From Candidatus Heimdallarchaeota archaeon (GTDB lineage Archaea > Asgardarchaeota > Heimdallarchaeia > JABLTI01): a stretch of DNA of 30,262 bases. Below, one piece after another: positions 1 to 5,606 of this stretch. Where the stretch lies: contig JAUWKS010000039.1 of assembly GCA_030614005.1 (NCBI GenBank), positions 1 to 30,262 of the forward strand, written 5' to 3'. A program made the translations under genes and the position numbers. Below the pieces are notes generated by a model that was not told the DNA's origin, did not search any database, and worked only from the letters and a program-made list of their open reading frames with translations. Each line of letters starts with the position of its first letter. Position 1 is the first letter of the stretch.

Positions 1-488
1 TATTGCTTTCCTTTGTATCCCGGTGGTTGTGCATCTTTATCGCCATTTCTCCTCAAAGCATGAAATGACTTGTAATCAGCTTCTAACTGCTTGAGCATTC
101 CTTGCAGTGTCTTTGAATAATTTTGTTTGTAACGAGGGTAAAGGACTTTTACCTTTGGTAGTTGTGCTGATTGCTTGTTGTAGGTAGGCTTTGTTTCTTT
201 GTCTCTGTTCTTCTTTGGTAAGTGCTTGTTTTTGTCCCACCACTCTTTTCGCTCTTTATTAGCAAAGTAATGTATTAATCGACAATTTTCTGCTAGAGCC
301 CAGAGAACTTTTTCTTGTTCTTTTGTTGGTTTGATCTTTACTTTAGCGGTTAGTTGGAGTGGTTTCTTCTTGGTTGGTTTTGTTACTTGTCGTACTTGTT
401 CCAGCGCTTTCTCTAATTCGTTCTTTGGCAAGTCAGCTATGAGTGTTTTATATGCTTTTCTTGTGAGGCGCTGTTCTTTTGAGAGCAT
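1..488 (-). CDS. tnpB: TnpB RNA-guided endonuclease, IS200/IS605 family; 5' part only (162 codons), runs off the left window edge
   Basis: My translation from ATG 488-486 has no stop before position 1: MLSKEQRLTRKAYKTLIADLPKNELEKALEQVRQVTKPTKKKPLQLTAKVKIKPTKEQEKVLWALAENCRLIHYFANKERKEWW...KQSAQLPKVKVLYPRYKQNYSKTLQGMLKQLEADYKSFHALRRNGDKDAQPPGYKGKQ. This matches the HTH_OrfB_IS605 pattern (KxxIxPTxEQ...L...CR) and the following 'LQ..LKxL...YKSF...PPxxK' segment. The RuvC domain is outside the window. Confidence 0.85.
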   Translation of the reverse strand, partial: MLSKEQRLTRKAYKTLIADLPKNELEKALEQVRQVTKPTKKKPLQLTAKVKIKPTKEQEKVLWALAENCRLIHYFANKERKEWWDKNKHLPKKNRDKETKPTYNKQSAQLPKVKVLYPRYKQNYSKTLQGMLKQLEADYKSFHALRRNGDKDAQPPGYKGKQ

Positions 489-540
489 TTTTTCTTCATA
501 CTATTATTGATTAGCTGAATATATTTCATTTAGCTAAAGA
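1..540 (-). mobile_element. Probable left part of a tnpB-only (IS1341-like) element or a derivative; left boundary uncertain
   Basis: tnpB has no tnpA (Y1 or serine recombinase) in the 317 bp before rio2. Imperfect hairpin ttagct...agctaa at 511-537. Confidence 0.45.
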
Positions 541-783
541 GATTACTGAAAGTATTGTCCTTTATTTAAAAGAATAGTTGAACAATTAGCCATTCGTACA
601 TCTTTTCTAAGAGGTATTTAAAAAGAAGAAAGAGTATTGAATTGTAGGAGAATCACTATGCAAAATTATTGAATTTTCTATGAAAAAAGATACTTGCTTA
701 TTTTCTTTGACTGTGGAAAATTTAAATATTGGTTAACGAAATGATATTGTAAACTAAAACAAATAATCCTAACCATTCAAAAG

Positions 784-805
784 CTTTTCCGGAAAAGAAA
801 AACAA
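784..805 (-). terminator. T-rich tract plus perfect 14-bp palindrome just after the rio2 stop
   Basis: The minus strand reads TGA ttgtttttcttttccggaaaagctttt; cttttccggaaaag (784-797) is its own reverse complement. Confidence 0.4.
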
Positions 806-1714
806 TCACTTTTTCTTTTTCTGAAGCTTCTCTTCATATTCGCTGTAAATTACATCAAGTATTTCTTTGGGGTTGGATTCAATGCTAAATTTTCTATTGA
901 AAAATTTACAAAGATTTTTGATATCTCTAAACAAGTATTCTTTCGCATTAGGATGATTAGCTAATTCATATTGGGGAAAGTCGATTATAAGAAAATCATG
1001 TTTTGGTGTGACTATGACATTATATTCGGATAAATCTCCATGAACAATATTGCCTTTTACAAAGAGCTTTCTTACTTGGGTCATAATACCATTAAATACT
1101 TTCAGTGGTTTTTTCAAATCGTAGGCATCAACCAATTCTATCCCATCAAAAAAATCCATCACTACAATGTGCCTATTTTGATCAATAGCGTTTGGTACTT
1201 TTGCTTTTATCTCCTTGGCTAATTTTAATCCCTGAAACTCTCGCTCTGCTGAAAGTCTTGATTTATAGAGCCAATTAATGTGCCCTCTCCTTCCAACATA
1301 ACTTCGAAGTTTTTTGCTTCTTTTAAAACTAGGTCGACCAACTCGATGTATCTTCGCTACTACTGTTTTCTGTTTTTTATCAAACGCAAAAAACACATCC
1401 GATTCCTTTCCCTTTCCTAACTCTCGACCAATGGCAACGATTACATCTCTCTCGGACAATGCTCTAAAAGCTAATACATCGTATCCATGATGCGTCAATT
1501 GATAACCAATATAATGCCCTTTCCAACGTAAAATTAGATCCTTGAAATGCAATGCATCTATTCTCTTTATTACTTCATCTATCGTTAATTTGCTGAATTC
1601 AACAACGGTTTCAATTGAAACATATTCAGATGTTCGCATTCCTACTTCTATAGATTGTAGTATGCGAAAGTCTGCTTTCTCTAGTTCAAGAAGATATTCA
1701 GCTGCTTTAGACAT
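806..1714 (-). CDS. rio2: RIO2-type Ser/Thr kinase/ATPase (small-subunit ribosome maturation)
   Basis: N-terminal winged helix (GYQLTHHGYDVLA), GxGKES P-loop, AKIHRVGRPSF, catalytic IVHGDLSEYNV, IDFPQ; GGAG SD upstream. Confidence 0.93.
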   Translation of the reverse strand: MSKAAEYLLELEKADFRILQSIEVGMRTSEYVSIETVVEFSKLTIDEVIKRIDALHFKDLILRWKGHYIGYQLTHHGYDVLAFRALSERDVIVAIGRELGKGKESDVFFAFDKKQKTVVAKIHRVGRPSFKRSKKLRSYVGRRGHINWLYKSRLSAEREFQGLKLAKEIKAKVPNAIDQNRHIVVMDFFDGIELVDAYDLKKPLKVFNGIMTQVRKLFVKGNIVHGDLSEYNVIVTPKHDFLIIDFPQYELANHPNAKEYLFRDIKNLCKFFNRKFSIESNPKEILDVIYSEYEEKLQKKKK

Positions 1715-2349: not shown

Positions 2350-3987
2350 CTAATTTTTCTTTAATTTCATTCTCTCAATTGCTGCGTCAACAAATCCTTT
2401 GAAGAGTGGATTCGGACTCCAAGGAATGGAGGTAAATTCTGGATGAAATTGTGACGCATGGAAAAAGGCATGACCGGGTAGCTCTAAGATTTCCATTCTT
2501 CGTTTGTCTTCTGATGTTCCTGAAAAGACCAGACCTTTTTCTTCGAATTTGCCGATATAATCTGGATTAACTTCAAATCTATGTCTATGGCGTTCACGAA
2601 TAGTTGTAGAACCATATAACTCGAATGTCTTGGTTCCTTCCTTGAGAAGAACAGTTTGTCCTCCTAAATTCATCGTTCCACCTAAATCGCTCACATTTTT
2701 CTGTTCGGGAAGCAAATCAATTACTAGATTCTTTGATTTTACATCACCATTCATTGTAAATTCATAGCTAGTGGCATCTGCTAATTTCAAAACATGTCGG
2801 GCGAATTCAACAGTTGCTAACTGGAAACCAAAACATAATCCAAGGAAAGGGATATTATTTTCTCTTGCATATTGAATCATTTTGATCTTTCCTTCTGTGC
2901 CACGATACCCAAAACCTCCTGGAATAATAAGACCATCGTAAGATTCCAGTACTTTCGTTTTCAGAGAATCATTTTCAATATCCTCAGTTTCAATCCAATC
3001 GATTTGGACAGTATATTTGTGTATTGCTGCTGCATGTTTTAAAGCTTCATTAACCGAAATATATGAATCAACTATTTGAGTATATTTTCCACCCATAGCA
3101 ATTTTAATAGTAGCAATGGGATTTTCATATCTGTCTATGAGTTCATTCCAAGTTTTCCAATTGGGTTTAGCTAATTTTAGATCTAACATTCCTAAAATTA
3201 AATCACCGAAACCTTCCTGATCAAGTAAATATGGTGCAGAATATACAGACCCTAAATCTGGTAAAGTGAATACCGCTTTTTGAGGAACATTACAGAATAA
3301 AGCAACTTTTCTTTCAGTTGCCTCGTCTAAAACATCATGACTGCGACAAACAATGATATCTGGATTTAATCCAATACTTCGAAGTTCTTTTACAGAATGC
3401 TGTGTAGGTTTTGTTTTTGGTTCACCTAAATGTGGTGGAACTGGGACATAGGTGGTGTGAACAAGAAGAGTATCTTCTTTATCTTCTTCCATTAGTATTT
3501 GACGGATAGCTTCCAAATAGGGTAAAGATTCAATATCTCCTACTGTACCGCCAACTTCAACCAACAAGGCATCTGGATTTTTATAGTCGATTACAGCTCG
3601 AATTCTTTTCTTGATTTCATCAACAATGTGGGGAATTACTTGAACGGTTTGCCCGAGGAAATCTCCTGCGCGCTCTCTTCTAATTACTTCTCGATATACT
3701 TTCCCCGTAGTAATGTTCTGACTCTTTTGCATACTGAGCCCTAAGATACGAGCGTAATGTCCAAAATCAACATCAATTTCCCCACCATCATCTGTAACGT
3801 AAACCTCACCATGTTGAATTGGATTCATAGTCCCAGCATCGATATTAAGATAAGGATCCATCTTTATGAGATCTACAGTTCCTTTTCTTACTTGGATATT
3901 CTTTCCAATACTAGAAGCAACAATTCCTTTCCCGATACCTGACATTACTCCTCCAACGACAAAGATATATTTTGTTTTCTTAGACAT
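2350..3987 (-). CDS. pyrG: CTP synthase
   Basis: GGVMSGIGKG, KMDPYLNIDAGTMNPIQHGEV, EVGGTVGDIES; glutaminase Cys in GLCFGFQ and QFHPEF. Confidence 0.98.
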   Translation of the reverse strand: MSKKTKYIFVVGGVMSGIGKGIVASSIGKNIQVRKGTVDLIKMDPYLNIDAGTMNPIQHGEVYVTDDGGEIDVDFGHYARILGLSMQKSQNITTGKVYREVIRRERAGDFLGQTVQVIPHIVDEIKKRIRAVIDYKNPDALLVEVGGTVGDIESLPYLEAIRQILMEEDKEDTLLVHTTYVPVPPHLGEPKTKPTQHSVKELRSIGLNPDIIVCRSHDVLDEATERKVALFCNVPQKAVFTLPDLGSVYSAPYLLDQEGFGDLILGMLDLKLAKPNWKTWNELIDRYENPIATIKIAMGGKYTQIVDSYISVNEALKHAAAIHKYTVQIDWIETEDIENDSLKTKVLESYDGLIIPGGFGYRGTEGKIKMIQYARENNIPFLGLCFGFQLATVEFARHVLKLADATSYEFTMNGDVKSKNLVIDLLPEQKNVSDLGGTMNLGGQTVLLKEGTKTFELYGSTTIRERHRHRFEVNPDYIGKFEEKGLVFSGTSEDKRRMEILELPGHAFFHASQFHPEFTSIPWSPNPLFKGFVDAAIERMKLKKN

Positions 3988-4238
3988 TTGCTCACTTCAA
4001 CATACTTGTTTTTTAAAAAAATAACTTCGTTTTATCGAGTATAATAATATTTGGTTAACCAATAATTTACATGTATTTCAAATTATGGTTCATAGGTCTT
4101 TTGTAAGAGTGAAAAATTAATTGTTATCTAAAATGATAACTCATATATACTTTATTATCGACATTTGATTCATTAAAAGAAAAAGATTTTCTTAAGCAAA
4201 GGATGCTAACTATTTGCTTAAGGATTTTGGTTTTTTTT

Positions 4239-5606
4239 CTACTGAGTTGCTGCAGTAATATTGCAATCTACTACCTTAATCGTAGGGATAAACGTAGGGG
4301 TATTTACTTCCCACCATCGTATTTGCTTTCGATCACTGCCAATTGCGGAGATATTTTTACTCATACGAAGAAGATTGTCAGCTATTCTAAGTTTCCTAAC
4401 TGGCTTTTTAATTTCACCATCTTCGATTAAGAACATACCATCTCGTGGGATTGAAGAGAATTCTCCTTCGAGCATGTTGGTGTAGCGTGTATACCAGTTT
4501 GATGTTACGTAAATAGTGGGTTTCTTCGAGTCTGCTACTATCTCATCAAATGATTGATTCCCTTGTGGATAAACCATGTTTGTGGGTGTGGGTGCAAGGA
4601 GTTTAGATCCTGCGCCAAAATCTAGTAGATCAGAATTACCAGTTGTTTATGCTTGCATCATTAAACCTGGCGTTGTGTTGGGTATTAATCCAATTAAAAC
4701 ACCTTTGTCGATAATAGGCGTTTTACTTGTAGGCGTCCCTTCGATATCAAATGGCTTACTACCAAATCCTTCACCGATGTGAGGGTCATCAACAATATTG
4801 AGGTTTTCAGGACCAATTTGTTCGCCGAAATGATCGCTAAGCGGGCTCATACCAATGAGCATCATAACGGGGTTGGCTCCATTGGTTATTTCACCGAGAA
4901 TATTAGCTGCGACAGTTGGGCTCATAATAAGATCATATTTGCCAGCCTTACCTTGTTTCCCACCAATAGCCATAGTAGCAATTTTTCCTGCATTTTTGCC
5001 TGCTAGAGCCATCTTCTTCTCCAAATCGCTCAAATCTCTGCCAACAATGATGTCTTGTCCACTGCTCTCATTATCAACAAAAGAACGAATCGTAGAACGA
5101 TAGTAAGATGATTCATAGGATGCATTTACACCATAGCCGGTCATAAGCTCAGTTTTTACATTGCCAAAATAGAGTACACCTGCAACTCTTTTTGCTCCAG
5201 CTTCGATGGCAGAATCAATGGCTATGTTGACCATTTCAGGTGCTTTTTCAAACAGGTTATGTGTACGCTTATCATATAATCCATCGATCTTCTTGTACGA
5301 ATGAACTTTTTGTTGCATACCAGCGTAGAGATCACTATCAGGCATTTTTTTAGCAAAACTAACTGCACGAGGAATCGTTTTTTCTATTTTCGCTTCAGTA
5401 GGATCTTGAATATCTACTTGAGTAATTTTTCTACCAACTGCTAGGAATACTTCTAATACATTGGTGTCCCATTTCTTAGAAATATCAATATTGGAATTAG
5501 AAAATCTAATTTGATAGCTTGGATTCTGGGTTAATTTTGCTATTACTTCAGTTGCTCCTTCTTTTTGCGCAAGTTTGATTACTTTTTCCGGATAATTCTC
5601 AGTCAT
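4239..5606 (-). pseudogene. pmbA: PmbA/TldE-family protease partner subunit interrupted by an in-frame TAA (pseudogene or sequence error)
   Basis: Track ORFs 4647..5606 and 4239..4577 share a frame. Read through, the sequence is ...GLIPNTTPGLMMQA*TTGNSDLLDFGAGSKLLAPTPTNMVYPQG..., giving about 455 aa. Motifs: DDPHIGEGFGSKPFDIEGTPT, YVTSNWYTRY, RDGMFLIEDGEI. No HExxxH motif. Confidence 0.8.

Follow-up and report, generated by a model that had tools for sequence, protein, structure and literature searches.

Asgard Cas1 (aCas1)-associated TnpB loci of the groups Cas1H-Asgard-1 and -2 have been proposed to be transposons, with mention of helicase and WhiA/meganuclease-like cargo, and a function of Cas1 as their transposase is put forward as a hypothesis (PMC10691335). 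The same work describes 'RIIr' clades, in which a glycine occupies the RuvC-II position and the glutamate follows the next strand (Altae-Tran et al., PMC10691335). In Fanzor2, Glu467 and Asp501 belong to the catalytic triad, with the glutamate shifted by about 50 residues (PMC11832414). The E467A variant of Fanzor2 is dead, and archaeal TvTnpB, with the same arrangement of residues, is active as a nuclease, depends on a TAM and shows no collateral activity (PMC10530073). Non-autonomous tnpB-only elements, right-end omegaRNAs and TnpB2-type active sites are already known.

Here, a stretch of 30,262 nucleotides from a Candidatus Heimdallarchaeota archaeon (the window) was analysed, the first base of which is base 1 of contig C89 in an assembly of 126 contigs (3.62 Mb, 33.5% GC, 90% complete). 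The incomplete frame at its edge is likely the 5' third of tnpB in a tnpB-only mobile element of Heimdall-group Asgard archaea of ~1.8 kb, which derives from elements of 11-17 kb and is probably moved in trans. Like the Asgard Cas1-TnpB loci, the long relatives of this element combine tnpB with genes for a Cas1-fold protein, an SF2 helicase and a LAGLIDADG-HTH (WhiA-like) protein in Heimdall-group archaea, possess repeat-related ends and have tnpB at one of them, where a conserved T is followed by a variable (guide) region. In contrast, the window element is reduced to tnpB alone, and the downstream GTTCACTCA motif of PMC10691335 was not seen here. While the mobility of Asgard Cas1-TnpB transposons has so far only been predicted, the present analysis delimits the ends exactly for this lineage, adds TTAT as the target and pairs filled with empty sites, and it assigns the TnpB subfamily to this lineage rather than to Y1-driven IS605 elements. 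Taken alone, the element represents one more TnpB insertion sequence, with a relocated-glutamate site of a type already described and active in relatives. Its practical value is that it provides, for poorly understood transposons, minimal and exactly delimited ends, a TTAT motif, a defined guide position and sites known in both the filled and the empty state, and an element of 1.8 kb is much simpler to reconstruct in assays of transposition or cleavage than its 11-kb parent.

IS1341-type elements and the ISDra2 TnpB-omegaRNA system (PDB 8EXA, 8H1J) share with the element a single tnpB gene, a scaffold that overlaps the 3' end of the gene and ends at the right end, insertion directly behind a short T-rich motif without clear duplication, many non-autonomous copies and the TnpB/Cas12f fold. 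They differ from it in that no Y1 TnpA was found in the genus, the ends found here are imperfect inverted repeats, and the protein exceeds theirs by about 100 residues, has a clade-specific N-terminal extension and carries its RuvC-II glutamate at a relocated position. Hence, the label 'non-autonomous IS1341' given in a preliminary description of this DNA is apt as regards a non-autonomous, tnpB-only element inserting at a short motif with little or no duplication, but does not fit the lack of a Y1 TnpA match above the cut-off in 11 genomes of the genus, the imperfect inverted-repeat ends and the origin from a Cas1 element.

The truncated tnpB gene at the rio2-PAP2 locus

According to the ORF list, a frame of 162 codons with its ATG at 488-486 stays open past the first base of the window (Table 1). 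It lacks a stop codon and was missing from the ORF track because the window begins at a contig end inside a repeat. Residues 46-88 of the frame match HTH_OrfB_IS605 (Pfam; E 5.9e-6, 26.1 bits, cut-off 21), and the fragment shares 81% identity with residues 1-162 of an intact 499-aa TnpB encoded on contig C8 of the same genome. This intact protein matches guided_TnpB (NCBIfam; 172 bits, cut-off 100) as well as OrfB_IS605 (Pfam; 46, cut-off 30.5) and Cas12f1-like_TNB (Pfam; 45.7, cut-off 26.3), and its AF2 model (pLDDT 81, pTM 0.70) resembles the structures of Cas12f, ISDra2 TnpB and Fanzor2. The open frame is the first third of a genuine TnpB gene, far above chance expectation, in agreement with the TnpB signature that the preliminary description had read from the stop-free frame. 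In the AF2 model, TnpB residues 1-45 form a helical N-terminal extension (helices 2-18 and 22-36). This two-helix extension (window 354-488, minus strand) precedes the HTH_OrfB_IS605 region and occurs in the closest relatives only, many of which are named Heimdallarchaeota; the homologues of 410-440 aa lack it, among them those named Loki/Promethearchaeota, MSBL1 or Hadarchaeota.

Table 1. Features of the window copy and its surroundings, and junctions compared with empty sites in relatives
Feature	Location	Strand	Description	Evidence or comparison
tnpB 5' third (codons 1-162)	window 3..488	minus	gene truncated by the contig end	ORF list, Pfam, alignment
tnpB upstream non-coding region	window 489..657	minus		95% identity to C48:2-218, which continues into the LAGLIDADG-HTH gene
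LAGLIDADG-HTH gene-start remnant	window 658..672	plus	ATG CAA, then diverged; stop at codon 5
Left-end terminal segment	window 673..748	minus	outermost sense-strand bases AATATCATTTCGTTAACC	alignment of 13 left-end junctions
Target-adjacent motif of the window copy	window 749..752	minus	sense strand TTAC	family consensus TTAT after a purine
rio2 (context)	window 806..1714	minus	stop codon 53 nt upstream of the insertion motif	Pfam RIO1 2.1e-47, Rio2_N 7.8e-24
Solo left-end remnant of a sister long element	window 4041..4150	plus	starts ATAATAATATTTGGTTAACC; in the spacer after the CTP synthase gene
Short copy	left C83 / right C56		occupied ..TTTATT-AT-GATATC..GACC-AT-ATATACG..	empty ..TTTATT-AT-ATATACG.. 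(G010); G001 equivalent diverged
Long copy	C18/C8		occupied: same form as the C83/C56 copy	empty ..CATTT-AT-AAAACTATTC.. (G001)
C113 left junction	C113		TTAT at the break	relatives: TTAT in G001, ATAT in G010
C110 left junction	C110		TTAT at the break	relatives: CTAT or TTGT

As had been noted before, rio2 lies upstream of tnpB in the same orientation, with no transposase gene between the two (ORF list and Pfam). In seven congeneric genomes, rio2 is followed after ~95 nt by a gene for a PAP2-type phosphatase, and the spacer is empty. The PAP2 gene of the genome studied here is located at the end of contig C76, with a right end of the element just upstream of its start codon, and the final 126 codons of tnpB accompany this right end and run to the contig edge. 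Pairing of C76 and C89 by synteny places the putative 3' part and right end of the window copy at the end of C76, so that the copy would span C76:31722-32118, ~640 nt that are unassembled, and C89:1-748. It is oriented like rio2 and PAP2, 53 nt past the rio2 stop codon and 21 nt before the PAP2 ATG. The 126 codons of the 3' part are open and retain the RISE, CxxC..CxC and DRD motifs. Over window 1-321, the copy is 95% identical to a sister copy on C72, which provides the gene from codon 56 onwards. G010, the nearest relative (87% identity), was rejected as a clean empty rio2 site, as a deletion has taken out this site together with about 290 codons of PAP2; the empty-site comparison at this locus therefore used more distant congeners. 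It was further observed that the native upstream spacer of PAP2 is lost (C76:31701-31721; right end 21 nt before the start), and the gene may depend on read-through from the element.

In long elements, the equivalent of window 489..657 is the intergenic sequence that separates tnpB from the divergently oriented LAGLIDADG-HTH gene. A TATA-like box rich in A/T was read by eye only at about 613-625 of the window. The window and C48 are identical through ...CACTATGCAA and divergent beyond. The left end extends outwards to window position 748, or to 750 when the flanking AT/AC dinucleotide is assigned to the element. In addition, the window contains a remnant of a sister long element at 4041..4150, which matches C86:2049-2123 and C18:8933-8858 and is 88% identical to a decayed remnant in G010 (L061:1397-1491); no right end was found for it.

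Copies, ends and target site of the element

Comparison of window 1-900 with its own genome (BLAST) yielded 22 matches, mostly at contig ends, and the element accounts for a considerable proportion of the breaks between contigs. Thirteen short-form left ends are 93-97% identical over the ~260 nt preceding the ATG and diverge at the same point, and 16 right ends finish with ..GTTAACCAAGATAGACCAT and then diverge. The flanks differ at every one of these 13 left and 16 right junctions, which therefore represent distinct insertions. Thus, the frame belongs to a small mobile element (about 1.8 kb, with tnpB as its sole gene) present in about 13-16 copies and is not a lone or domesticated gene; this multicopy nature was not visible to the preliminary description. 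Right-end matches range from 0 to 5 in each of 10 congeners, nine of which carry the element, versus 17 in this genome. Truncated copies are also present: the copy on C7 stops at codon ~70, C29:3796-4282 comprises a 3' piece only, and C42 a left end only.

Four loci were compared with relatives at 80-91% identity for empty sites (Table 1). They show insertion after 5'-TTAT, either without duplication or with a 2-bp AT duplication, two readings that are indistinguishable. Among the short left junctions, T precedes the AT in 13 of 13 cases, the preceding position is T in 11 of 13, and the position before that is a purine in 12 of 13. A boundary with TATGA or ATG inside the element was considered and rejected, as the exact empty sites shifted it by 2-5 nt. 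The right end that would partner the C113 junction (possibly on C87) is not cleanly paired, with about 300 nt of the relatives' sequence missing.

When the left end (G-A-T/G-T..ATTTCGTTAAC) is compared with the reverse-complemented right end (GGTCTATCTTGGTTAAC), ~14 of 18 positions align. This imperfect terminal inverted repeat is modestly above shuffles, 24-47 of 2000 of which reach that score. Furthermore, the right end bears a covarying subterminal hairpin.

A recurrent loss of host DNA was observed next to insertions, on their right (guide) side. In G010, the rio2 site and ~880 bp of PAP2 are gone (L017 ~1500); the C110:66053 / C7:343-357 copy ends at tnpB codon ~70, with ~1.1 kb of host DNA gone; and a G010 remnant at the hut/CPSF locus (L061 1184-1500) is devoid of its right end and of ~17 nt of flank. 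Such losses may have arisen through TnpB cutting followed by imprecise repair.

Predicted guide-RNA scaffold and nuclease active site

Right-end regions from 22 copies in nine genomes are conserved over ~235 nt up to ..GACCAT and unrelated directly after, so that the check for an omegaRNA and right end 3' of the gene, suggested in the preliminary description, yielded a conserved, covarying scaffold of a putative omegaRNA with a shared boundary. This scaffold overlaps the last ~235 nt of tnpB and ends exactly at the right end. Its 47 pairs are 95% paired versus 34-42% with the partners slid, both sides are changed in 10 pairs versus 2-6 in the slid controls, and none of 500 shuffles reaches the observed values. 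Covariation is strongest in a terminal hairpin between two GTTAAC boxes, which RNAalifold missed through alignment gaps and which was added by hand before the pair count. Within the overlap of scaffold and ORF, dS falls to 0.2 and dN/dS rises to 0.5-0.6, and the ORF tail over the scaffold is unstructured in the AF2 model; both features fit an RNA constraint on this DNA. A search of Rfam with four loci including ends and scaffold gave no match at E <= 0.1. An optional extra hairpin of ~21 nt was also observed in the scaffold (A2 columns 143-163: C72, G010:C21, G003:C33, G004:C297); it exists in two versions, the stems of which differ by compensatory changes, and adds seven codons to the ORF tail.

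The host sequence following the right end of the window copy begins with AATTAAGCTAAGGTG.., and the candidate guide of this copy would be the ~20 nt starting there, which cover the PAP2 ribosome-binding site and start codon. The candidate TAM, deduced only from the insertion sites, would be TTAT.

To define the active site, 18 TnpB homologues with 48-83% identity were aligned, the source organisms of which are in part named Heimdall, Loki/Promethearchaeota, MSBL1, Hadarchaeota or Bathyarchaeia, with one from a bacterial candidate phylum (Zixibacteria). In 18 of 18 homologues, an invariant glycine (Gly341, IIIGDL) occupies the canonical RuvC-II position at the end of strand 4, and glutamate is absent there. 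D250 (RuvC-I), E395 and D429 (RuvC-III) are invariant, as are the zinc-finger residues C402, C405, C420 and C422, which are present in the 3' part of the window copy. E395 is located 54 residues downstream of G341, immediately after the strand 389-394 of the AF2 model (pLDDT 81), and E395 and D429 align with Glu467 and Asp501 of mimivirus Fanzor2 (HMMER). The family shares with TvTnpB of Thermoplasma volcanium and mimivirus Fanzor2 (PDB 9B0L) the replacement of the canonical RuvC-II glutamate by glycine and a conserved glutamate located about 50 residues further along, just after the next strand; it is an archaeal element and differs from them in its partner genes (TvTnpB is accompanied by an IS605 TnpA). 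As predicted from alignment and model, the RuvC site is of the relocated-glutamate type (TnpB2 / pro-Fanzor / RIIr), a known variant that is still within the TnpB family. Of the RuvC D-E-D triad and zinc finger that were to be checked according to the preliminary description, the aspartates and the zinc finger are in place, but the canonical glutamate is a glycine and a relocated glutamate is found instead.

Between copies, dN/dS is 0.08-0.16 over the protein body, which argues that the family is under purifying selection and not degenerate; the nuclease is predicted to be active.

Long elements, mobilisation and rival explanations

Elements of 11-17 kb possess the same tnpB family, right end and left terminus as the short form, and encode a LAGLIDADG-HTH protein, a protein of ~1380 aa with a Cas1-fold C-terminal part and an SF2 helicase-phosphoesterase. 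A long element of 11.1 kb in another Heimdall genome (L089) extends from TTTAT/GAGTCGATTTCGTTAACC to ..GACCAT/A and contains genes for a 1053-aa DEAD/Helicase_C protein, a 1383-aa protein and a LAGLIDADG_3+HTH_3 protein, together with a divergent tnpB. Long copies in the genome studied here are C8/C18 (about 16.8 kb), C29/C48, C86 and C15. The 1378-aa protein gave no match to Cas1 or any other family by sequence (Pfam, NCBIfam, PDB sequences and precomputed Pfam annotation of 16 homologues). Its C-terminal part contains Cas1-like conserved motifs (alignment A3), and for an AF2 model of residues 700-1378 (pLDDT 76), the top fold matches are solely Cas1 and casposase (E 5e-8), with TM scores of 0.5-0.57 normalised to the target. 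The Cas1-like motifs and fold of this protein therefore indicate that the long forms correspond to the Asgard Cas1-TnpB loci of Altae-Tran et al. The Cas1-fold gene adjoins tnpB in repeat-bounded DNA (L089, C8/C63), and the window copy is devoid of this gene.

The short form retains the divergent promoter region and the start codon of the LAGLIDADG gene (window 658-663), followed by the left terminal 75 nt, and the remnant at window 658..672 is read as a scar of internal deletion. A short form in another genome (L088) contains an independent, decayed remnant of 16 codons (MQDFFN*RTDP..). Both the retained promoter and start codon and the 16-codon remnant point to an origin of short forms from long ones by internal deletion, and the short form is, judging from its sequence, a non-autonomous derivative of a long Asgard Cas1-TnpB transposon. 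At a left-end-like site, C29:23395, similarity to the short left end is confined to the ~20-nt terminus, and none of the long left ends examined matches the inner 75 nt of the short one.

On the sense strand, the proposed layout of the window element would read host ...TTAC, a left end of about 260 nt, tnpB of ~500 codons, the right end ...GTTAACCAAGATAGACCAT, and host. The scaffold is probably transcribed together with adjacent host bases, which would serve as the guide. TnpB with this guide RNA would cut DNA in which TTAT is followed by a guide match, corresponding to the empty or excised site, and such cutting could favour retention or re-copying of the element. The predicted nuclease is of the relocated-glutamate type (D250, G341, E395, D429), with a layout as in active TvTnpB and Fanzor2. 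As the element lacks a transposase of its own and has its termini and tnpB in common with long elements, its movement is probably supplied in trans by a long element; the Cas1-like protein would be the leading candidate, and this is the least certain step of the model. No match to Y1 TnpA (PF01797) exceeded the cut-off in this genome or its 10 congeners (11 genomes of the genus), but these are metagenome-assembled genomes of 64-92% completeness, so that absence of a Y1 gene is not proof. Furthermore, no serine recombinase was found in this genome.

A more far-reaching proposal, which appears possible but rather doubtful, is that the giant Asgard Cas1-fusion protein moves the tnpB-only elements in trans by a chemistry that differs from that of casposases, with insertion at TTAT, no duplication or one of at most 2 bp, and coupled TnpB cutting of the vacated site. 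If true, the 13 or more recent insertions with defined ends and natural empty sites would be the first tractable substrates for a Cas1 transposase working with an RNA-guided nuclease. Casposons (PDB 6OPM) resemble these elements in the Cas1 fold of the long-element protein and in their inverted-repeat-like termini, but the long elements lack PolB, and their Cas1 domain is part of a fusion of ~1380 aa. Casposase-type Cas1 integration generates duplications of 14-15 bp, and the footprint of 0-2 bp found here is unlike it, which argues against Cas1 as transposase or at least complicates this role. Insertion after a 4-nt motif without duplication, or with one of at most 2 bp, is the hallmark of Y1-driven IS200/IS605 elements, and the copies might belong to an ordinary tnpB-only (IS1341-type) IS200/IS605 element that is moved by a Y1 HUH TnpA acting in trans through single-strand peel-and-paste. 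We regard this explanation as improbable. It would account for insertion directly 3' of a fixed TTAT without clear duplication, for tnpB and the guide scaffold at the right end, for the subterminal hairpin with compensatory changes beside the right end and for the name 'IS200/IS605 family ... TnpB' that close homologues bear in their source records. However, Y1_Tnp was not detected above the cut-off in this genome and 10 congeners, nine of which are carriers of the element, the ends are related in inverted and not in direct orientation, and the same ends bound elements with Cas1, helicase and LAGLIDADG genes in two different genomes.

Two further explanations concern the window copy itself. 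It may be a dead relic with a broken middle or a truncation, as in C110/C7 and C29, so that nothing functional would be present at rio2. The unassembled stretch of about 640 nt between C89:1 and C76:32118, the truncated copies elsewhere (C7, C29, C42) and the motif TTAC instead of TTAT are compatible with decay, but both assembled parts (162 and 126 codons) are open with all conserved residues kept, and the 95% identity to the sister copy on C72 over window 1-321 likewise speaks against a relic, to which we assign a low probability. By comparison with TldR proteins (nuclease-dead TnpB-like repressors), which resemble the locus in that a tnpB homologue lies beside host genes with no adjacent transposase, the copy could also be a domesticated, immobile RNA-guided regulator beside rio2 and PAP2. 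Its orientation is the same as that of both genes, and because its right end lies 21 nt ahead of PAP2, the ribosome-binding site and the initiation codon of this gene would fall within its guide. Unlike TldR, the family retains its catalytic residues and zinc finger and is multicopy and mobile, with element ends present and different flanks, and the rio2-PAP2 spacer is empty in seven congeners; domestication is thus extremely unlikely. Of the two alternatives left by the preliminary description, a domesticated TldR-like copy fails on this evidence, including the 13-16 copies, and a mobile RNA-guided nuclease is favoured by the multiple copies with different flanks, the empty locus in the seven congeners, the retained residues and dN/dS of about 0.1. 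The preferred interpretation remains that of a mobile, tnpB-only derivative of the long elements.

In the long C18/C8 copy, the interval from the helicase to the left end (C18:4000-8770) contains type I restriction-modification-like cargo (hsdR/S/M-like ORFs, identified by eye), and C29 retains just an hsdM-like fragment. A conserved, GC-rich block of ~75 nt (..CGCACTGACGCGTGAGGAATCGCTGTAAGCGATGAG..) is located 3' of the LAGLIDADG-HTH gene in this genome of 33% GC (C8 ~4520-4600, C86 ~3480-3560, C48, C63 and C9); it has no Rfam match and resembles a structured RNA between the LAGLIDADG-HTH and Cas1-like genes. The genome encodes 13 paralogues of the ~540-aa LAGLIDADG_3+HTH_3 (WhiA-like) protein (C8:4614-6239, C86, C48, C63, C9:142745-144358, C78:5638-7017 and seven more), at least six of which are divergent from tnpB genes of three TnpB families (499, 546 and 397 aa) and have a common intergenic region.
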